From sequence record NC_048177.1: a stretch of DNA of 42,291 nucleotides; one strand, written 5' to 3'. The stretch comes from Escherichia phage Lidtsur. The notes beneath the pieces were generated by a model, which was not told the origin of the DNA, did not search any database, and saw nothing but the letters and a program-made list of their open reading frames with translations. The stretch's first letter is position 1. Each line of letters begins with the position of its first letter. This document shows positions 7,399 through 19,747 of this stretch, piece after piece. Both the position numbers and the translations under genes were made by a program.

Positions 7399-8664
7399 GT
7401 GCTTGATAAACTGTTGCTCTCTGTCATGCGCGAGCGGGGTAAATACAATACCCTGCGACACGCCATTCCAGAGGACATGATGAGCCAGACTACCAGCTAC
7501 ATGCTGCGTGCATATGGCTCATACTTCGAGGCGTTTCCAGATTCAGACTATGTGGATATGGATACGCTTGGCACACACGTCCGGCTCAAGACGGGTAGCA
7601 CGCCTGAACAGATGGCGGCGTTTGAGTCTTTGTGCCAGCAGCTCCGGGAGTATCAACCAACCAAGCCGCAGGTAGAAGGAATCATTGACCAGTTAGTCGA
7701 GCTGGATACAGCGGGCAAGGTTAACCTCCTTGCTCAGAGGTACGACAATGGTGAGGAAATTGATTTTATCTACGAGCTTGGGCGTCTTGCTGAGGGCGCA
7801 CGTCGCAGCCGGGGGCAGTCATCTATCACTGATTACGTGGACGATGATGTGGTTGATATTATTAATCGCACGGATGACGACCACGGTTTCAAGTTCGGTC
7901 TTATCTGCTTGCAAGACAGTGTGCGCGTGCTTCTCCCCGGCGACTCAGTTGCCATCGGCGCTCGACCCGACAGCGGGAAGACTTCCTTCCTCGCGTTTAA
8001 CCTTACGAGAATGGCGGCGCAGGCGCACAAGCTGCATCCGGGCAGGCCAATCCTGTGGTTCAACAACGAGGGGCAGGGCATCAATATCATCCCGCGCATC
8101 TACCAAGCGGCGTTGAAGTGCACGCTCCCTGAGTTGAAGGAGCTGGGTAAGGACAGAAAGAAACTCCACGAGAAGTATGCCAAGGCCATCGGTGCGCCAG
8201 CCAACATCATCCGCGTCAAGGATATGCACGGCGCTACTCTGGCCAAGGCTGAGCAAGTCATTGAAGCAATGAATCCCTGCATCGTGGTATGGGATATGCT
8301 GGCCAACTTCAAGCTGTCCGTGGCTGACGCGAACAGTAACAAAGCCAGCCAAGTCGAGCAACTCTGGCAGGAGGTACGTGAGCTGGCGGTGCGGCATAAC
8401 TTCGTATCAATAGCTACGGTTCAAGTATCCGCAGATGGTGCCGACGATATGTTCCCTGCGCTGGATGCACTCAAGGATTCCAAGACTGGTATCCAAGGTG
8501 CGACCGATGTGATTGTCATGCTCGGTTCGGTTGACGACCCGGCGCTGGCAGCACGGCGCGGTGTGAGCACTCCGAAGAACAAGCGGCAGGTGGCTGGGCG
8601 TCCATCCAACATCCGGTCGCAGGTTCATTTCTATGCAGACAAATGCCAATTCGAGGATATGTAA
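7399..8664 (+). CDS. DnaB-like replicative DNA helicase
   Basis: GTG start after AGGAGGG; Walker A GARPDSGKTSFL (DnaB-type) and Walker B-like IVVWDML. Confidence 0.85.
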   Translation: MLDKLLLSVMRERGKYNTLRHAIPEDMMSQTTSYMLRAYGSYFEAFPDSDYVDMDTLGTHVRLKTGSTPEQMAAFESLCQQLREYQPTKPQVEGIIDQLVELDTAGKVNLLAQRYDNGEEIDFIYELGRLAEGARRSRGQSSITDYVDDDVVDIINRTDDDHGFKFGLICLQDSVRVLLPGDSVAIGARPDSGKTSFLAFNLTRMAAQAHKLHPGRPILWFNNEGQGINIIPRIYQAALKCTLPELKELGKDRKKLHEKYAKAIGAPANIIRVKDMHGATLAKAEQVIEAMNPCIVVWDMLANFKLSVADANSNKASQVEQLWQEVRELAVRHNFVSIATVQVSADGADDMFPALDALKDSKTGIQGATDVIVMLGSVDDPALAARRGVSTPKNKRQVAGRPSNIRSQVHFYADKCQFEDM

Positions 8665-9008
8665 TGAGCACAATCAAAGTAGGCGACCGCGTTCGTAACT
8701 GTGATACCAAGAGCGTGCACTACGGCGCGACTGGTACTGTCGTTGACATTGATGCCAAGTGCATCAGCATCAAGCGTGATGATGGCGCTCGCGGCTCCGG
8801 CATCTACGGCTCGTGGACTGCACGACCTGAATGCTGGGAGCTGCTGGTAGAGGCCGCAGAGCCTGTACCCCAGCCGGAAGACTGGAGCTATGGTGAGGCT
8901 GAGCGTCTCTATCAGGAAGCGTGCACTGCCATTGAGACGTACAATCAGTACGTTCTGCGCAAGCCGACGACCAGCTACATGACTGCTGGCCTGCCGAGCA
9001 AATGGTAA
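8664..9008 (+). CDS. hypothetical protein (114 aa)
   Basis: Internal ATG of track ORF overlapping the helicase stop by 1 nt; GAGGA SD. Confidence 0.5.
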   Translation: MSTIKVGDRVRNCDTKSVHYGATGTVVDIDAKCISIKRDDGARGSGIYGSWTARPECWELLVEAAEPVPQPEDWSYGEAERLYQEACTAIETYNQYVLRKPTTSYMTAGLPSKW

Positions 9009-9172
9009 AGGGGCGCAGCTACCGCCGTTGCTCTTGCGGCGGATGCCTGCTGGTCGAGCAGGTCAAGGGCAAGGCCACTGGCAAGACGCTGGTGATTTAT
9101 GAATGTGAGAAGTGTGGGGAGAAGCAGTATGGAAGAACGCACGTATCGAGCAGTACCTTTAAGCCTGCGTGA
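9002..9172 (+). CDS. possible small zinc-ribbon protein (56 aa)
   Basis: Read from sequence: MVKGRSYRRCSCGGCLLVEQVKGKATGKTLVIYECEKCGEK...; two Cys pairs (CSCGGC, CEKC); overlaps neighbours. Confidence 0.3.
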   Translation: MVKGRSYRRCSCGGCLLVEQVKGKATGKTLVIYECEKCGEKQYGRTHVSSSTFKPA

Positions 9173-9320
9173 GCAAGAGATAATCCGAGCGCAGTACCGC
9201 AAGGGTGACTCGTTCCGTGGCGCTGAGGCGCTGGCCGAGCGTTTCAATGTACCGCCTGCCGACGTAGTGGCAGTGGTTAACTACACCTACCGCAAGGGGA
9301 AAAAGAAAAATGTTCAGTAA
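9129..9320 (+). CDS. hypothetical protein (63 aa)
   Basis: Internal ATG of track ORF 9099-9320 after GGGGAG; overlaps the candidate zinc-ribbon ORF in another frame. Confidence 0.35.
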   Translation: MEERTYRAVPLSLREQEIIRAQYRKGDSFRGAEALAERFNVPPADVVAVVNYTYRKGKKKNVQ

Positions 9321-9981
9321 TGCAGAAGCAAAGCGTGCATGGGCGCGTGAGATTTGTCATGTGTTGCAGGGCGAAGGGTTGAGCTTTGTTGTCGCAGGGG
9401 GTGGGGCAAGGGACACTGCGCTTGGCATCGAGCCTAAAGACTTCGACGTTGTGGTGTATGGCTGGGGCAGCAACGTTGATGAGATAGCTCGTAAGCTGGA
9501 CTGGCTTGATAGTCTGCTTGAGCGGTATGCCCGCGAGCAGGAAATCAACTACGAGTACATGCCAAGCTATCATGATGCAGCAGAGGGTGGCGACTTCGGC
9601 TCCCGGCTGTACGGCGTGTACAAGGTTGGCCCGGTCGATGTAATCATAAGCAAGTGCGGCGCGTGGTCGCAGGTGCTGGCTGAGTTCGACTTAAACCTGA
9701 ACCAGTTCTACTTCCCGTCCAGCATCCCGCGTTACTCTGGTCAGTACAGCCGTGACCCCGGAGACTTCATGGCGTACCCGTACCATCCAGACCTGACGGC
9801 TGCGGATGTTGAATGGTATCCGGCTGTTGCCAATCAAGCTCAGTCGTATGATGAGCTGCTTACTCTGCGAGTCGTACGTCCTGATACCAGCCTCAGCCGC
9901 AGGGTGTACATCGAGCAGAAGCACCACGACAACTACGAAGCACTGGTCGCGTTTGTTAAGCGCAAGTCCGGTGCATCATGA
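9310..9981 (+). CDS. nucleotidyltransferase with CCA-adding enzyme / poly(A) polymerase-type head domain
   Basis: VVAGGGARDTALGIEPKDFDVVV closely matches the class II tRNA-NT/PAP signature (cf. E. coli PcnB [20 protein letters not shown]); only 223 aa, so head-domain-sized. Confidence 0.6.
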   Translation: MFSNAEAKRAWAREICHVLQGEGLSFVVAGGGARDTALGIEPKDFDVVVYGWGSNVDEIARKLDWLDSLLERYAREQEINYEYMPSYHDAAEGGDFGSRLYGVYKVGPVDVIISKCGAWSQVLAEFDLNLNQFYFPSSIPRYSGQYSRDPGDFMAYPYHPDLTAADVEWYPAVANQAQSYDELLTLRVVRPDTSLSRRVYIEQKHHDNYEALVAFVKRKSGAS

Positions 9982-10029: not shown

Positions 10030-12489
10030 GTGAGAGTGCAGATAATCGACGTCGAGACAGAGAACAATGATTGGTTCGGTGAGCTGGCATCGCCACGCTG
10101 CCCGGACAATTATGTTGTCATGCAAGGCCAACGAGACTGCGAACTGACCAAGGATGGCTGGGAGTTCTATGAGCGCGAAGAGTATCGGTACTCGTCTAAG
10201 GAAGACTGGGCAGAGAACAAGTCTCTGCACCTGCATCCTGATACGAAGATGCTGGTAGCCCATAACGCGCCGTACGAATTAAGCTGGTGGTTCATGCACT
10301 ATGGGGATGAGTTCATTGACTTCCTCAAACGTGGTGGCCGTGTGTTCTGTACAGCGTACGCCGAGTACCTGCTGACACACCAGCAATCCCAGTACCCATC
10401 CTTGAACGAGACTGCCCCGAAGTATGGCGGTACTCACAAGGTTGATGCAGTCAAAGCAATGTGGGAGGCAGGTTATCTCACAAGCCAGATTGACCCTGAG
10501 CTGTTGAGTGAATACTTATCAGGGCCGAGCGGCGATATCGAGAACACCACGAAGGTGTTCGTCGGGCAATGGAAGGAACTTGAAAAGCAAGGGATGTTGA
10601 AGATGGCGCTCACTCGCATGGAAGGTATGCTGATGTGGGCGTACATGATGCACTCCGGTCTGCACGTAGACCGCGAGGTTGCCGAGCGCAATCGCCAAGA
10701 GCTGATGACGCAAATCAATGAGCTGACTGATAAGCTGCTGGACTACCTGCCGGACGACATGCCGCAGGAAGCCCGCGAGCAATTCAAGTTCACGTCTGCT
10801 TATCACATGAGCGCATTCGTATTCGGCGGCGTGTTCAAATACAAAGCCCGTGTACCGCGCACGGACGACGGTGGCAATCCTATCTATGTGAAGGTTGACG
10901 CACCGCTGTTCAAGCGCGGCAAGGAGAAGTGGTTGAAGCACAAGGATGAGTGCGTGTTCGATGAAGAGTCCGGGCTATGGTATGACCCGGTAGAGAAGGT
11001 GCACCAGTGTCTTTACACGGCTGGCAAGTTCAAGGGTGAACCCAAGTACGAGCGGCTGGCCACCGATGAGGTGGACATGAAGTGGGGCGAGCTGACCTGT
11101 AAGCTGCCCGGTCTGCTGCGCGACAAAGATAGGCGAGCGCGTGAGATTGCAGACAACCTTCTGTGGGAAGACCCGAAGCGTCCGGGCGAATATCTGCGGC
11201 GCACTGGTGATTGGGTAGGTAAGCGTAAGCTGGCTGATGGCACCCCGGTGTTCAGTACAGCAGGCGAGGTGCTGGACATTCTGGCAGCGCGTAAGATTCC
11301 CGGCGTCGTTGAGATTGCCGACCGCGCTAAAGCACAGAAAGACCTTGGCACCTACTACCTGAGCGAGACGTTCGATGAGGAAGGTAATGTTACTGGTCAG
11401 TCTGGTATGATGCAGTTCATCCAGCCGGACGGTATCGTACACCACACCATCAACATGACCGCCACCGAAACTACTCGACTCTCATCGGCTCGACCAAATA
11501 GCCAGAACCTTCCACGCAAAGGCACGAGTAAAGTTAAGCAGATGTTCACCTCCCGGTTTGGGCCGGACGGTCGCATCGTTGAGGCTGACTACTCAGCGCT
11601 GGAAGTAGTAGGGCTGGCGGGATTCAGTAAGGACAGGAACCTCGTCAAAGCTCTGATGGATAACATCGACATGCACTGTATGCGTCTTGCCGCGCAGCTC
11701 AATGAGGACTACGAAGAGGTCAAGCGTAAGGCTAAGGATGAGTCACATCCTGAGCACGAGCGCTATAGCCAGATGCGTACAGACATTAAGCCCAAGGCAT
11801 TCTCGTATCAGTATGGTGCGACGGCGCGAGGTATCGCGTACTCCACTGGCTGCACTGAGGAAGAGGCGCAGGCATTCATCGACAACGAGAAAGCCCTGTT
11901 CCCGGAAGTGGAATCATGGTTTGAATCGGTTATCTTCCCGGCTGTGGAGCGCAGCGGTCAGAGCAATATCTTCAAGGAGCAGGATGAGAATGGACGGTGG
12001 TGCGTCTACCGCCGTGGCTTCTTCAAGTCTCCGGGTGGTACGTGTTACTCATTCCGTCAGTATGAGAAATGGGATAGCGCAGCCCGCAGTTACTTGATGA
12101 TGTACAAGCCAACCCAAATGCGTAACTATCCGATTCAGGGTGAGACAGCGTTTTGGGTGCAGGGTATCGGTGGCCTGTTGTTCCGCTGGCTGCTGGCCAA
12201 TGACTTCTTTGGTGGGCGCGTGGTTCCCATCAACCAAGTGCATGACGCATTCTATTTCGACATAGCGCCTGACTGCCCGCATGAGTTCTTCGTTGGACTC
12301 AAGGCAATCATGGAGTGCATCCCGGAATACTTCAACCACGTATGGCCTGAGTATGACCTGAGAGTTCCGTTCCCGGCAGAGGTGGAAGCAGGCCCAAGCA
12401 TGTATGAGAAGCACCACGTAGAGACGACAGCCGAAGAAGTGCTGGAGTTCAAATGTAATTTCCTGAAATCTAAGGGTATCAAGATATGA
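10030..12489 (+). CDS. family A DNA polymerase with 3'-5' exonuclease domain
   Basis: GTG start after GGAG; Exo I IIDVETE; Pol motif A DYSALEVV, motif B KAFSYQYGA, motif C QVHDAFYFD; 819 aa. Confidence 0.9.
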   Translation: MRVQIIDVETENNDWFGELASPRCPDNYVVMQGQRDCELTKDGWEFYEREEYRYSSKEDWAENKSLHLHPDTKMLVAHNAPYELSWWFMHYGDEFIDFLKRGGRVFCTAYAEYLLTHQQSQYPSLNETAPKYGGTHKVDAVKAMWEAGYLTSQIDPELLSEYLSGPSGDIENTTKVFVGQWKELEKQGMLKMALTRMEGMLMWAYMMHSGLHVDREVAERNRQELMTQINELTDKLLDYLPDDMPQEAREQFKFTSAYHMSAFVFGGVFKYKARVPRTDDGGNPIYVKVDAPLFKRGKEKWLKHKDECVFDEESGLWYDPVEKVHQCLYTAGKFKGEPKYERLATDEVDMKWGELTCKLPGLLRDKDRRAREIADNLLWEDPKRPGEYLRRTGDWVGKRKLADGTPVFSTAGEVLDILAARKIPGVVEIADRAKAQKDLGTYYLSETFDEEGNVTGQSGMMQFIQPDGIVHHTINMTATETTRLSSARPNSQNLPRKGTSKVKQMFTSRFGPDGRIVEADYSALEVVGLAGFSKDRNLVKALMDNIDMHCMRLAAQLNEDYEEVKRKAKDESHPEHERYSQMRTDIKPKAFSYQYGATARGIAYSTGCTEEEAQAFIDNEKALFPEVESWFESVIFPAVERSGQSNIFKEQDENGRWCVYRRGFFKSPGGTCYSFRQYEKWDSAARSYLMMYKPTQMRNYPIQGETAFWVQGIGGLLFRWLLANDFFGGRVVPINQVHDAFYFDIAPDCPHEFFVGLKAIMECIPEYFNHVWPEYDLRVPFPAEVEAGPSMYEKHHVETTAEEVLEFKCNFLKSKGIKI

Positions 12490-13418
12490 CCAAGCCGAGT
12501 GTATTGAATCGCTTTAATGCTACCGTAGAGCAGTTCGTTGAAGAAGAAGGTGTGGACTTTAACGAAGCCGTCGCTGGTGGTGGTGGTAAGCTGATGCCGG
12601 AAGGTAAGGCACTGGCACGCCTGATTCAGTATGTTGAAGTTGGGCCGCAGCCCATCAAGCAGGATGCAAGCAAGCCGCCTGTCAATAAGTTCTTCCTCAA
12701 GTTCGCAGTGTGGGGTAAGGGCAAAGACAAGCAATCCACCTTCCATGAAGTTGTGGATGGTAAGATGGTTCCCGGCGTAATCCGCACTCAGATGATTGCT
12801 GTGAAGAAAGACCTGAACAGTAAGTCAGGGGCATACAAGCTGTTCAAACGTATGAACCCGGACAAGACTGCTAAGCATTTCGCTCAGCTCATCAACGGCA
12901 CATTCATCCTGCCTATCGTCCACAACGAAAGCGGTGAGGGCGAGAACAAGAAAGTCTACGCTAACATTGACTTAGAGAATATCAGCCTCGCGGTCAACCC
13001 GGTAACTGACGAACCGTTTGACGTGCCGGAAGTGGAAGACGAATCTCTGTTCAAGCTGTTCCTGTGGAACCGTCCGAGCAAAGAGGACTGGGAATCCCTG
13101 TACATCGAAGGTAAGAACGATGAAGGGAAATCGAAGAACTGGATTCAGGATACCCTGCTGTCCAGCCCTGAGTTCCCCGGCTCTCCGCTCGACCTGCTGC
13201 TGAATGGCGGTGGCGCTGGTTCGGCTATCTCTGAACTGCCTGAGCTTGACGAGCCTGAGCAGGAAGAAGTCAAAGAGGTAACGCCGCCGCCGGAAGAGCT
13301 GCCAGTCAAAGGCAAGGGTGGTGCCAAGGGTGCCAAGGGTGCGAAGAAAGGTAGCGAAGAAGCCAAGCCTGAGCCAGACGTAACTGGTGAAGCTGACTTC
13401 GGACTGCCATCCCTGTAA
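12486..13418 (+). CDS. hypothetical protein with K/G-rich repeat and acidic C-terminal region (310 aa)
   Basis: ATG overlaps polymerase stop (ATGA); low-complexity GKGGAKGAKGAKKG followed by acidic tail; function unknown. Confidence 0.6.
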   Translation: MTKPSVLNRFNATVEQFVEEEGVDFNEAVAGGGGKLMPEGKALARLIQYVEVGPQPIKQDASKPPVNKFFLKFAVWGKGKDKQSTFHEVVDGKMVPGVIRTQMIAVKKDLNSKSGAYKLFKRMNPDKTAKHFAQLINGTFILPIVHNESGEGENKKVYANIDLENISLAVNPVTDEPFDVPEVEDESLFKLFLWNRPSKEDWESLYIEGKNDEGKSKNWIQDTLLSSPEFPGSPLDLLLNGGGAGSAISELPELDEPEQEEVKEVTPPPEELPVKGKGGAKGAKGAKKGSEEAKPEPDVTGEADFGLPSL

Positions 13419-16013: not shown

Positions 16014-16228
16014 GCAGGACACTGTACTCAGATAGTGTGGTGCAGCTCAAAGAGGACGGCCTCTCGATTGACTGGGAGGCTCGTACTCAGGTTGACCTGT
16101 ATCCCGATGGCACCGTCTGCATCTCGCAGGACGGAGAAGAAGTATGGCTCCCTTGGGCCTACGTCAAAGATATCATCTTTGCTTTAGAGGAAGCTCACGA
16201 TGCAACTGAAAGACACCGTGGTTGTTGA
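16010..16228 (+). CDS. hypothetical protein (72 aa), TTG start, doubtful
   Basis: Track ORF with non-ATG start overlapping both neighbours. Confidence 0.25.
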   Translation: MSRTLYSDSVVQLKEDGLSIDWEARTQVDLYPDGTVCISQDGEEVWLPWAYVKDIIFALEEAHDATERHRGC

Positions 16229-16715
16229 CCTTGATGGTACGCTGGCCGATGGCCGCTGGCGATTACACCTGATGCCGCCGCCTGAACGCCGCCACTTAGA
16301 CGAGGCTTGGGCTGAGTTCAATCTGGCTGGTATTGATGACCCGCCGTTTCAGGACACCATTGATATTGTGAACGCACTGGCCCTAACGTATCGCATTATC
16401 ATCCTGACCGGGCGCGGGGCTATTGCTCGTGAAGTAACTGAGCAGTGGCTTGAAGACAACGGCGTCGTTTATGACAAGCTCATCATGCGTGAGATTGGCG
16501 ATTGCCGTCAGGACACCGAGGTCAAGCGTACCGCGCTGGAAGACATTGGCCTCGACAACATCGTATGCGCATTCGACGACCTACCGCACATCGTTGACTT
16601 CATGCGCAGCCTTGGCCTGACCGTGTACGAGGTTACTCGCTATGAGGATGGCCACGATTATGTGCGTGCAAATGCCAAGTACAAAGATGGGGAGTATCAG
16701 GATGAGCAAGCGTAA
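16200..16715 (+). CDS. HAD-superfamily phosphatase
   Basis: HAD motif I VVVDLDGTL, motif II IIILTGR, C-terminal FDD; GAGGAA SD. Confidence 0.6.
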   Translation: MQLKDTVVVDLDGTLADGRWRLHLMPPPERRHLDEAWAEFNLAGIDDPPFQDTIDIVNALALTYRIIILTGRGAIAREVTEQWLEDNGVVYDKLIMREIGDCRQDTEVKRTALEDIGLDNIVCAFDDLPHIVDFMRSLGLTVYEVTRYEDGHDYVRANAKYKDGEYQDEQA

Positions 16716-17067
16716 TGAGGCAGCACCTGAAAACAAAGTAGCAGGTGGCCCCGGTGGTATGAAGTATGATGGCGGCAAGCCTCGCATGGCGCTGGTGTTC
16801 GACGGTATGCCACGAGCGCTGGAAGCTGTCGGGCAGGTGCTGACCTTCGGTGCTCAGAAGTATGCAGCTCATTCGTGGCAGACCGTGCCGGAAGGTGAGG
16901 AACGCTACAAGTCTGCGCTGCTGCGCCACCTGACGGCGGTTGGCCGGGGTGAGGAACTGGACAGTGAATCTGGCCTGCACCACCTCGCACATGCAGCGTG
17001 CAACGCGCTGTTCATTCTGGAACTGGAACTGAGGAAACGTGATGAGTCGTTATCAAAAAGCAATTGA
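16702..17067 (+). CDS. hypothetical protein, possibly nucleotide diphosphohydrolase-like N-terminal domain
   Basis: Internal ATG after GGGGAG; MKYDGGKPRMALVF...VLTFGAQKYAAHSWQ matches from memory a phage domain annotated as dATP/dGTP diphosphohydrolase N-terminal; unverified. Confidence 0.4.
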   Translation: MSKRNEAAPENKVAGGPGGMKYDGGKPRMALVFDGMPRALEAVGQVLTFGAQKYAAHSWQTVPEGEERYKSALLRHLTAVGRGEELDSESGLHHLAHAACNALFILELELRKRDESLSKSN

Positions 17068-17308
17068 AGACACAGTGTTAGACCAGAAAGAGTGCGCTGC
17101 CTGCCACGGCAGTGGCACCTTCACGGGCATGACTATCCGGCATGAAATCGTGCAGATGGAGTGTGAAGCCTGTGGTGGTACTGGTACGTGTGACTCCCTG
17201 CTGCAACTCTCTGTGCTGCGCGATTTAGGTATGCGCAAACGTGTTGAGCCGGGTTACGCCGAACCAACATTCATTGATGTGCCGAACAACAAAGACGATT
17301 ACGAGTAA
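17042..17308 (+). CDS. small zinc-ribbon protein (88 aa)
   Basis: Two CxxC pairs (CAACHGSG, CEACGG); GAGGA SD. Confidence 0.45.
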   Translation: MSRYQKAIEDTVLDQKECAACHGSGTFTGMTIRHEIVQMECEACGGTGTCDSLLQLSVLRDLGMRKRVEPGYAEPTFIDVPNNKDDYE

Positions 17309-17314
17309 GGGGAT

Positions 17315-19747
17315 ATGATGGATTTGCTGGCAGAACAGATTCGACTGGAAGAAGAAGCCCGCGCACGCCATCGCGCGGGGTGGTTAGACAACATCAAAGC
17401 AGCGATGGATGAAGGGCGGGCATCGGCTGTGCCGCTGTTGCAGCGTGCAATGGTTAAGGCTTATCCGACTGTCGAAGCAGCTATGCAGGAAATCCTGAAT
17501 GAGAATACTCGCGGCTTTGGTGCGCAGTACCGGACGCACATGCGGGAGATTGGGGTGAAGACCTGCGCTACTCTGGCGCTCAGCATGGCAATGTCAGGGG
17601 CGGTAGAGAAGGTCGCTGTTACGCAGCACCTACGCAGCATGGGGCAGGCTCTAATGGCTGAGGTGGTGTACCACAAAGCCTCAGCCAGAGGTGCGCGTGA
17701 AGCGGCTTACATGCAGCGTGTGGGGCAAGACGTTAAGCGCTCCAAGTCGAAGTCTCCCAATCACATCTACAACAAGGCCCGCGCATCGGCGGCTAACGTT
17801 GGGGTGCACATGGATGTGTTGCCTCAGCGTGCGCTCATCACAATCGGTAAGATGATGATGCGTGCAGTCGAACCAACAGGTCTGGTCAAGACTATCCGTA
17901 TCGGTGGCAGCGCCAGACAGCGTGGCACTGCACACTTCGCTCTGCATGATGATGTGATTATCATGCTCAACGACTGGATTAAGCTGCCCGATATGACAGT
18001 AGGCTGCTACCCAGTGATGATTATCCCGCCTGCGGAAATTAATCCCAATGGGCTTGGTGGTATGTGGCACTCTCCGGGGCAGGCGGCGACGTATCAGGCA
18101 ATCAGCCGACTGCGCCACAAAGAGTACCGCGCTCAGAAGGTAGACCCGCTACCCATTATCGAGCCGTGTATGATGCTCAGTGGCACGCCGTTCCGTATCA
18201 ATAAGATGGTGCTGGAGTTCCTACAAAACAACCACACTGGCGTTATGGGCCTGCCTGCTGCGCCAGTGGAACCTAAGCTGCCATTCACAATCCCGGAAGG
18301 TGTGAGCTTTGCTCAGTACATCAGCAGGTTCCCGCCTGAAATGCAGCAGAGGATGGACGCTGAGGCGCATGAATTTAAGGTTAAAACCCGCATGTACCAT
18401 AATGAGTACCGCAGGTTTACAACCAAGGTGCAGGCGCTCGGAAGTGCGCTGGCTGAGGCTAAGCGCTACTGTGCATACGAGCGTATCTACCTGCCGACAT
18501 ACGCCGACACTCGTGGCCGAATCTACTACGCATCGTCTCTGAATCCTCAAGGTATCGACGCAATAAGGGCGCTGCTAGAATTAGCCGACGCTGTGCCGCT
18601 TGGCAGTGAAGGGTTGTTCTGGCTGAAAGTGCATGTGGCCAACTGCTTCGGCTATGACGCCACTGACTTTGAAGACCGGGCGGCTTGGACTGACAAGACC
18701 CTGCCAAGACTTCGTGAAGCCTGCCGACTGCCGGAGGCTTACGACTCATTCTGGTCTGAGGCCGATAGTCCTCTGTGTGCATGGGCAGCTTCTGTAGAGC
18801 TGGTGCGTGCGCTGGATAGCGGCAACCCGGAAGAGTACCCGTGCCGCGTTGTTACGCAGTGGGATGCAACTTGCTCAGGTCTACAGCACCTGTCGGCTAT
18901 GCTCCGTGATGAGGTGGGCGGTGCTGCCGTCAACCTGATTAACTCGCCGGGGCGCAAAGCCGATATCTACCTCAAGACTGCTGACGCAGCAATGGCAGCA
19001 CTGCGCGAGTCTGAGGCATCCTGCAAGACTGAGCTGGGGCAGTGGCTGTTGAAGATTGGCATCCAGCGTGCGATGGCCAAGAAGCCTGTAATGACCTACG
19101 TTTACGGGGCAACCCGCCACGGTATGGTTGATTACTATGCCCTGTACCTGCGCGAGAACAACATCCCATTGCCTCCCGGACACAGCCTGTTCGAGTGTGC
19201 GATGTTCATTGCCGGGATTATGTGGGACGCTATACCGCGAGTGGTTCCTAAAGCGGCAGAGCTTATGGCTTGGTTGCAATCTCTGGCGACTATGGTGGCA
19301 GAGAAAGGAGAGTACGTTGAGGTGATAGCTCCGTCAGGCTTACGGATGGTTAATCTGTATCAGGCTTCGAAAGAGGCAGCTATGGGCCTGAACCTAATGG
19401 GTGTGCACGGCATTAAGATTAGGGAATGGCTGGATAAGCCGGACTCCCGTAAGTGTGCAGCAGCTATCTCACCCAACTTTGTGCACGCTATGGATGCCAG
19501 CCACATGATGAAAGTGCTGTGGGAAATGTGGAATAACGGGGTTTACATGGTGTCTATCCATGACTCCTTCGGCGTTGCGGCAGCACACGCTGGGCTGTTG
19601 CACAGAGTCATCCGTGAAAAATTCGTGCAGATGTACGAGGAACATGACCCTATTCAGCAACTTGCTGAAAGATATGGTGTTGAGCCTCCGGCTAAAGGCC
19701 AGTTGGATATCAAAGAGGTGCTGAAATCTACCAAGTTTTTCTGCTGA
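17315..19747 (+). CDS. single-subunit DNA-dependent RNA polymerase (T7-like)
   Basis: WDATCSGLQH (motif A), AKKPVMTYVYGATRHG (motif B) and VSIHDSFGV (motif C) parallel T7 RNAP catalytic motifs; 810 aa. Confidence 0.9.
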   Translation: MMDLLAEQIRLEEEARARHRAGWLDNIKAAMDEGRASAVPLLQRAMVKAYPTVEAAMQEILNENTRGFGAQYRTHMREIGVKTCATLALSMAMSGAVEKVAVTQHLRSMGQALMAEVVYHKASARGAREAAYMQRVGQDVKRSKSKSPNHIYNKARASAANVGVHMDVLPQRALITIGKMMMRAVEPTGLVKTIRIGGSARQRGTAHFALHDDVIIMLNDWIKLPDMTVGCYPVMIIPPAEINPNGLGGMWHSPGQAATYQAISRLRHKEYRAQKVDPLPIIEPCMMLSGTPFRINKMVLEFLQNNHTGVMGLPAAPVEPKLPFTIPEGVSFAQYISRFPPEMQQRMDAEAHEFKVKTRMYHNEYRRFTTKVQALGSALAEAKRYCAYERIYLPTYADTRGRIYYASSLNPQGIDAIRALLELADAVPLGSEGLFWLKVHVANCFGYDATDFEDRAAWTDKTLPRLREACRLPEAYDSFWSEADSPLCAWAASVELVRALDSGNPEEYPCRVVTQWDATCSGLQHLSAMLRDEVGGAAVNLINSPGRKADIYLKTADAAMAALRESEASCKTELGQWLLKIGIQRAMAKKPVMTYVYGATRHGMVDYYALYLRENNIPLPPGHSLFECAMFIAGIMWDAIPRVVPKAAELMAWLQSLATMVAEKGEYVEVIAPSGLRMVNLYQASKEAAMGLNLMGVHGIKIREWLDKPDSRKCAAAISPNFVHAMDASHMMKVLWEMWNNGVYMVSIHDSFGVAAAHAGLLHRVIREKFVQMYEEHDPIQQLAERYGVEPPAKGQLDIKEVLKSTKFFC

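Follow-up and report, generated by a model that had tools for sequence, protein, structure and literature searches.

Which reaction is to be expected of a tRNA nucleotidyltransferase-like protein that comprises little more than a catalytic head and is encoded among the DNA-metabolism genes of a phage? This question is raised by a gene in the genome of Escherichia phage Lidtsur (NC_048177.1), which was analysed over its entire length of 42,291 nucleotides (in the following referred to as the window). The open reading frame (ORF) is present exactly as given in a preliminary description of this DNA, and its position is listed together with the other features in Table 1. Based on protein sequence and predicted fold, the encoded nucleotidyltransferase (NTase) is the catalytic head of the class II lineage, which comprises bacterial CCA-adding enzymes together with poly(A) polymerases (PAP), followed by one or two leftover neck helices. 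Its function is presumed, with a confidence that stays somewhat short of even, to be an untethered PAP-like tailing of RNA 3'-ends that perturbs host RNA, a reading which we base on the sequence and on analogy to other enzymes.

The comparisons relied on an alignment of 148 family members, which was used as profile, and the Escherichia coli enzymes Cca and PcnB served as positive controls for the pattern searches. Motif A of the NTase, GGGARDTALGIEPKDFD, was the single occurrence of the pattern GG..RD.{4,12}D.D when the window was translated in all six frames, compared to 0.007 occurrences expected according to 300 shuffles. The pattern was detected in 145 of the 148 members as well as in both controls, so that the motif match to the head of class II tRNA nucleotidyltransferases and PAP claimed by the preliminary description holds. 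The residues G30, G31, R34, D44 and D46 are invariant across the 148 sequences. Both AF2 models place the candidate third catalytic carboxylate, D110, in a strand of the central sheet. It matches in position the h[DE]h pattern given at amino acid 114 of Gp22 of the Klebsiella phage fHe-Kpn01 (PMC7291057). The elements defining the Pol-beta-fold superfamily (hG[GS], [DE]h[DE]h and h[DE]h on a minimal alpha-beta-alpha-beta-alpha-beta core) are all found in the NTase. Since D44, D46 and D110 are essentially invariant, the protein is probably catalytically active.

Searches with the single sequence reached only the segment of about 45 residues around motif A. The Pfam scan matched PolyA_pol (PF01743) with 18.7 bits at amino acids 28-61 only, which falls short of the 23 bits set as gathering cut-off, the NCBIfam pcnB match covers amino acids 12-56, and a phmmer search against the PDB retrieved the E. 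coli PAP with an E-value of 0.043. A profile of 20 sequences performed no better than these searches. By contrast, the 148-sequence profile aligned with E. coli PcnB over 162 columns (hhalign, Prob 95.2%, E 2.8e-8) and with E. coli Cca over 142 columns (Prob 88%). PolyA_pol was furthermore matched individually by 66 of the 148 members (E<=0.01, best 5.4e-7), other NTase families by at most four members each. The closest matches to the predicted fold of the head domain in the fold search were likewise class II enzymes, and in structure as well as in sequence the protein is most closely related to CCA-, CC- and A-adding enzymes. The profile comparisons and the PolyA_pol matches therefore identify the protein as a catalytic head of class II lineage, and neither the profile nor the structure search pointed to an unrelated fold. 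The homology ends at residue 157 of 412 in Cca and at residue 229 of 465 in PcnB; no homology to the class II body or tail was detected beyond the head, and with 223 amino acids compared to about 400 the protein is indeed only head-sized, as had been proposed.

The NTase differs from the complete enzymes not only in its length. Class II enzymes are defined by four domains, a motif B (DxxRRD) responsible for ribose recognition and, in the case of PAP, a signature in the stretch from motif A to the loop (PMC2910056). Their motif D (EDxxR) functions as the amino-acid template for CTP and ATP (PMC11784652, PMC3925840), and its D and R were found to be irreplaceable in selection experiments (PMC11784652). 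At the position of motif B the window protein carries AEFD, with both arginines replaced (E125, F126). The RRD-type motif B ([RK][RK]D[hydrophobic][TS][IVL]N), which was found in Cca and PcnB, was detected in none of the 148 members. Similarly, the EDxxR of motif D was recognised in both controls and in four of the 148 members, the window protein not being among them, while the PAP signature [LIV][LIV]G[RK][RK]Fx[LIV]h[HQL][LIV] was present in the control PcnB as LVGRRFRLAHV and in none of the members. No recognisable motif E was found in the window protein, and in the region of motif C, where the alignment is of low confidence, G144 is aligned with the conserved glycine and P140 stands in place of the aspartate.

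In place of motif B the family shows a signature of its own, and its nucleotide pocket is likewise a version peculiar to the family. The pattern FD.N.NQ was found in 113 of the 148 members in a regular expression search, and its residues are conserved individually to an even higher degree (F126 in 139, D127 in 147, N129 in 137, N131 in 145 and Q132 in 128 of the 148 sequences). Compared to the class II enzymes (PF01743; e.g. 1miv, 3h37, 4wby, 1ou5) the Lidtsur NTase thus lacks RRD, EDxxR, motif E, body and tail, and compared to E. coli PcnB (3aql) it lacks the PAP signature and the RNA-binding C-terminal region. Judged by these differences in sequence, it is neither a canonical CCA-adding enzyme nor PAP I. 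The loss of RRD is reportedly linked to the use of deoxynucleoside triphosphates (dNTPs), as in dCdCdA-adding mutants; this link was not used as evidence here.

The C-terminal helix RRVYIEQK was modelled with pLDDT values >95 in AF2 model 2. R197 is retained in 147 of the 148 members and the wider pattern R...[MILVF]..K in 103 of them. The helix probably derives from the first neck helix, which is the carrier of motif D in class II enzymes, and the near-invariant R197 (together with D192) may represent what is left of motif D. Its role is uncertain since the hhalign alignments with Cca and PcnB disagree on the register of this helix relative to the motif D helix.

The single experimental result found for a protein of this kind concerns Gp22 of the Klebsiella Drulisvirus fHe-Kpn01, a tRNA nucleotidyltransferase-like protein of 182 amino acids, whose induction from pBAD33 was shown to be toxic to E. 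coli (Spruit et al. 2020, PMC7291057). Gp22 was verified by sequence comparison as a member of the Lidtsur NTase family, both by BLASTP against the Lidtsur protein (32% identity, E 3e-14) and by hhalign against the family profile (Prob 99.7%, E 2.5e-25), the latter alignment covering residues 10-176 and with them the C-terminal R...M..K helix. The two proteins share the same motif positions and their genes both adjoin the DNA polymerase gene, but the gene of Gp22 is located 3' of it and the Lidtsur gene 5', and the toxicity was demonstrated for Gp22 alone. Toxicity is known from other small NTases: the MenT and AbiEii (DUF1814) toxins are stand-alone Pol-beta NTases that act by extending the acceptor end of tRNAs (PMC10435456, PMC11541572) and may be regarded as functional analogues of a toxic mini-NTase. 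Unregulated tailing of tRNA 3'-ends by deregulated PAP I is lethal as well (PMC3561954). The toxicity of Gp22 fits such a lethal, unregulated tRNA 3'-tailing as caused by PAP I and MenT and would be a poor fit for a repair enzyme. Neither MenT/AbiEii nor other defence-system NTases were detected by PADLOC in the case of the Lidtsur NTase or were its closest fold match. The charge of the protein was considered as a further clue. The Lidtsur NTase is acidic (pI 5.0) and E. coli PcnB basic (pI 9.7); however, the acidity of the family (median pI 4.9) was rejected as a sign against an RNA substrate and is regarded as uninformative because residues 1-157 of E. coli Cca are equally acidic.

To our knowledge every class II enzyme characterised so far extends the 3'-OH end of RNA. 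In these enzymes the chemistry resides in the N-terminal core, whereas the C-terminal domains are responsible for the CCA specificity (PMC2532741), and an untethered tailing of RNA is therefore the most economical reading of a protein that has retained the core. According to this proposal the NTase would be made alongside the products of the DNA-metabolism (middle) genes and would transfer nucleoside monophosphates from nucleoside triphosphates in an untemplated manner to those RNA 3'-OH ends that are accessible. Devoid of tRNA-measuring domains and of the CCA template, it would act untethered instead of repairing CCA ends in a programmed way. Host RNA would thereby probably be perturbed or redirected, for instance if RNAs or the ends of tRNAs were tagged for decay or inactivation, and such a perturbation would account for the toxicity of a family member expressed on its own in E. 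coli. The predicted tailing of host RNA fits better than a repair of tRNAs, and it is preferred because of the toxicity of Gp22.

Several points weigh against this proposal. The toxicity was observed upon overexpression in a heterologous host and for a protein sharing just 32% of its residues with the Lidtsur NTase, and phage proteins are in many cases toxic for other reasons. Due to the loss of the ribose-sensing arginines the donor could be something other than a ribonucleotide, and without an RNA-binding body or tail the affinity to RNA may be low. The constant setting among replication genes could indicate a role related to DNA. Furthermore, a broad block of tRNA charging would be of little use to the phage since it needs translation itself.

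Among the alternatives a minimal tRNA nucleotidyltransferase, which rebuilds damaged 3'-CCA ends in the course of the infection, perhaps together with a HAD/PNKP-type 3'-phosphatase, deserves the most attention, although we consider it unlikely. The nearest relatives named above are tRNA 3'-end-adding enzymes, and the protein has been referred to as tRNA nucleotidyltransferase in the literature on the basis of HHpred searches and modelling (PMC7693777, PMC8472413). Jumbo phages moreover possess full-length CCA-adding enzymes for which a role in RNA repair has been proposed (PMC7824862), and a PNKP-type 3'-phosphatase is encoded by Lidtsur as well. Against these points stand the missing motif D, with its two irreplaceable residues, the lack of any tRNA gene in the window, the lack of an RNA ligase or a kinase domain among the ORFs scanned and the toxicity of a family member, which is unexpected of a repair enzyme. 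Of the repair role considered in the preliminary description the class II head thus stands, while the role itself is weakened because motif B, motif D and the tRNA-binding body and tail are missing across the family.

The proposed partner of such a repair exists, too: the stand-alone phosphatase was assigned to Pfam HAD_PNKP (E 3.8e-16) and to phrog_415 (E 3.8e-53). What could not be upheld is its pairing with the NTase in a dedicated end-healing pathway, as had been suggested. The phosphatase gene is located about 6.2 kb downstream of the NTase gene and separated from it by at least five genes, with those for the DNA polymerase, a phrog_862 protein, a 5'-3' exonuclease and a DNA-repair exonuclease lying in between. 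The context of the NTase was surveyed in 43 related viral loci, almost all of them on contigs of about 40-43 kb, and a tblastn search detected the phosphatase within 10 kb on either side of the NTase in six of these loci, all belonging to the close clade (L004-L009). The two genes also differ in their distribution, as the phosphatase was found in 1496 phage records from many families compared to 182 records for the NTase query, and in Pseudomonas phages 96 NTase records are opposed to at most 23 phosphatase records. Consequently, a dedicated NTase-phosphatase pathway across lineages is not supported, while an occasional cooperation in the Lidtsur clade is conceivable. With the T4 Pnkp/RNA ligase pathway, which heals and seals tRNA ends, Lidtsur shares a PNKP-type HAD 3'-phosphatase domain; the Lidtsur protein, however, is phosphatase-only, the ORFs scanned yielded no RNA ligase, and the phosphatase is uncoupled from the NTase both genomically and phylogenetically. 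Homologues of the phosphatase are often labelled as 'polynucleotide kinase' and may be devoid of the kinase part.

The position of the gene bears on a second alternative and on the claim of the preliminary description that an NTase between helicase and DNA polymerase is unexpected. The latter was not borne out, as the gene is a known and annotated accessory of the replication modules of Autographiviridae. In all 43 loci it was found in the DNA-metabolism module, although with varying neighbours. In Lidtsur and the LIMEzero-like phages the order is helicase, a gene for a protein of 121 amino acids (p121), a gene for a protein of 73 amino acids (p73), NTase and DNA polymerase. In Ghunavirus phiPSA2 and most T7-like loci the gene lies between those for lysozyme and primase/helicase, where stop and start codons frequently overlap, in Drulisvirus it follows the DNA polymerase gene, and in the remaining loci it is located 5' of the primase gene. 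That the gene keeps to the replication cluster throughout, with at least three arrangements (helicase-NTase-DNA polymerase, NTase overlapping primase/helicase and DNA polymerase-NTase), argues for a terminal (deoxy)nucleotidyl transferase linked to DNA or to the replisome, which would add untemplated nucleotides to DNA 3'-ends or RNA primers. The family-wide replacement of the ribose-recognising arginines of RRD (PMC2910056) points in the same direction. We nevertheless consider such a DNA role rather improbable.

The same low probability is assigned to an NTase that modifies an acceptor other than a nucleic acid, be it a small molecule or a protein of the host, or that makes or consumes a nucleotide signal, in either case for the purpose of host takeover or against host defence. 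Motif A of the GGxxRD type and the best fold and profile matches point specifically to class II RNA-end enzymes, and neither a PADLOC hit nor a conserved partner or target gene in the neighbourhood was detected. Finally, a catalytically dead remnant with only a binding or structural role is hardly credible, since a protein that is indeed shorter than every characterised class II enzyme and devoid of motifs B and D has nonetheless kept D44 and D46 without exception, D110 almost so, and G30, G31 and R34, which is the pattern of an active enzyme.

The gene in Lidtsur is an ordinary member of phrog_1614 ('nucleotidyltransferase'; E 8.6e-35, 121.7 bits, amino acids 8-207) and thus belongs to a known, already annotated phage family and not to a new one. 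The family occurs in hundreds of Autographiviridae records. In an exhaustive profile search we obtained 403 clusters at 50% identity, almost all of them representing stand-alone proteins of 145-230 amino acids that share the profile positions of about 10-135; the median length of the 148 aligned members is 187 amino acids. An insert of about 50 amino acids (positions of about 136-190) is specific to the Lidtsur clade and absent from most family members. Named members are J8-65 gp17, LIMEzero gp22, gh-1 gp13, phiPSA2 gp20 and the KP34-like gp22. The homologues in J8-65 and Kc261 are 71-73% identical to the Lidtsur protein and occupy the same position between helicase and DNA polymerase. In RefSeq J8-65 gp17 is designated as 'nucleotidyltransferase', and the labels of many homologues range from nucleotidyltransferase and tRNA nucleotidyltransferase to even pcnB. 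Evseev et al. 2020 (PMC7693777) and Miroshnikov et al. 2021 (PMC8472413) described the product as a putative CCA-adding enzyme based on BLAST, HHpred and modelling, and reported the gene in 37 of the 46 Autographiviridae of Pectobacterium and, outside this group, in about 60 of more than 500; about 97 of about 550 Autographiviridae have kept it.

The family is large and almost exclusively phage-borne, and matches in bacterial genomes originated only from an integrated T7-like Pseudomonas prophage. In Pseudomonas fontis (NZ_JAMDGX010000046.1, positions 33534-49920) a T7-like Autographiviridae segment lies within a bacterial contig of 120 kb; it is 90.7% identical to the lysogenic phage vB_PaeM-G11 and carries the NTase homologue directly 5' of the primase/helicase gene. 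A domain fusion was considered as a functional clue and rejected because the long match in question, P0117, consists of four tandem full-length class II enzymes and is therefore a different thing. This protein, which is not encoded in the window, comprises 1455 amino acids in four tandem modules, each with a PolyA_pol head and an RNA-binding domain, and by eye its motif B positions lack RRD (e.g. 'KGFDLTINT', 'WRCDFTINA'). The homologues P0018, P0020-P0023 and P0025-P0028 carry a precomputed assignment to PF26128.2 which did not appear in the local Pfam scan of these proteins, and a literature search retrieved no paper naming PF26128.

Table 1. Positions of the NTase gene, its sequence elements and further features considered in the window of phage Lidtsur.
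Feature	Position	Strand	Remarks
Mini class II-type NTase gene	9310..9981	+	223 aa, ATG start; end coordinate includes the stop codon
Shine-Dalgarno-like AAGGGG	9294..9299	+	10 nt 5' of the NTase ATG; read from the sequence directly
Motif A GGGARDTALGIEPKDFD (aa 30-46)	9397..9447	+	start of the triphosphate-binding helix and metal-binding carboxylates D44 and D46
D110, candidate third catalytic carboxylate	9637..9639	+	strand beta5 (VDVII); D in 146/148 members
Family signature FDLNLNQ (aa 126-132)	9685..9705	+	placed on class II motif B 'RRDxTINA' in both hhalign alignments
C-terminal helix RRVYIEQK (R197...K204)	9898..9921	+	aligned on the EDxxRxxRxxRF helix
73-aa basic ORF (p73), context only	9099..9320	+	pI 10.3; phrog_31596 (E 2e-35); 11-nt overlap of its stop with the NTase start
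Stand-alone HAD/PNKP-type phosphatase, not shown to belong with the NTase	16200..16715	+	171 aa, without kinase domain

The Lidtsur genome is of the Autographiviridae type with a phiKMV-like layout, nearly all genes being located on the plus strand and the phage RNA polymerase being encoded at 17315-19747. Its closest deposited relatives, Bonnellvirus J8-65, Kosakonia phage Kc261, Cronobacter phage RZ4 and the E. coli '-sur' phages, share only about 80% nucleotide identity with it. The NTase gene is located between the gene of a DnaB-like helicase (7399-8664) and that of a family A DNA polymerase (10030-12489). It is probably co-transcribed with its neighbours since neither a sigma-70-like promoter nor a terminator was detected near the gene. 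The ORF p73, which resembles a small helix-turn-helix protein by eye, was tried as a conserved small basic partner and rejected: it is kept beside the NTase only in the close Bonnellvirus/LIMEzero clade and is unrelated to the 73-aa ORF of Drulisvirus, which overlaps the end of the NTase gene and not its start. For this reason it does not represent a family-wide partner, and no other small partner gene was found throughout the family, as the flanking ORFs differ between the lineages.

Some further observations concern the remaining neighbourhood. The ORF of p121 (8643-9008, plus strand) overlaps the stop codon of the helicase gene; the N-terminal part of its product shows weak SH3-like matches that do not reach the cut-off (Xrn1 SH3-like domain, E 0.0011), and the C-terminal part matches phrog_19629. 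Directly after the DNA polymerase gene, and overlapping its stop codon, an acidic protein of 310 amino acids is encoded (12486-13418, plus strand; phrog_862, E 6e-77), which ends in a low-complexity tail of the KGAKGAKGAKK type and is kept after the DNA polymerase in many related loci. Immediately 5' of the RNA polymerase gene lies the gene of a CxxC zinc-finger-like protein of 89 amino acids (17039-17308, plus strand) with weak matches to the DnaJ central domain and to Anti-TRAP and with a match to phrog_6060 ('anti-termination protein Q-like', E 1.5e-12). The GC skew is positive (0.06-0.12) throughout positions 1-22000, which contain the early and DNA-metabolism half of the genome, and falls to about 0 in the structural half (22000-42291) despite the genes staying on the plus strand.

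Beyond the proposed tailing of host RNA by the Lidtsur enzyme, it is possible, if on balance doubtful, that the phage mini-NTases represent a distinct phage-restricted offshoot of class II with a new donor or acceptor specificity. According to the alignments RRD and EDxxR appear to have been exchanged for elements of their own, FDxNxNQ and R197, and a new specificity is therefore possible. If this was true, the proteins might act, for example, as host-shutoff toxins which tail the 3'-ends of host RNAs or tRNAs with an unusual nucleotide, or as dNTP-using terminal transferases working together with the phage replisome. The database labels 'tRNA nucleotidyltransferase' and 'poly(A) polymerase I', which are increasingly used for these proteins, exceed the evidence because the elements defining CCA addition and PAP I are missing. 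The carriers make up about one sixth of the Autographiviridae and include many therapy candidates against Klebsiella, Pseudomonas, Pectobacterium and Vibrio. Taking furthermore into account the published toxicity of Gp22, the family is a tractable candidate for a new phage nucleotidyl transferase that may act on RNA ends, or on other acceptors, in host takeover, and it deserves attention when the safety and the biology of therapeutic phages are judged.
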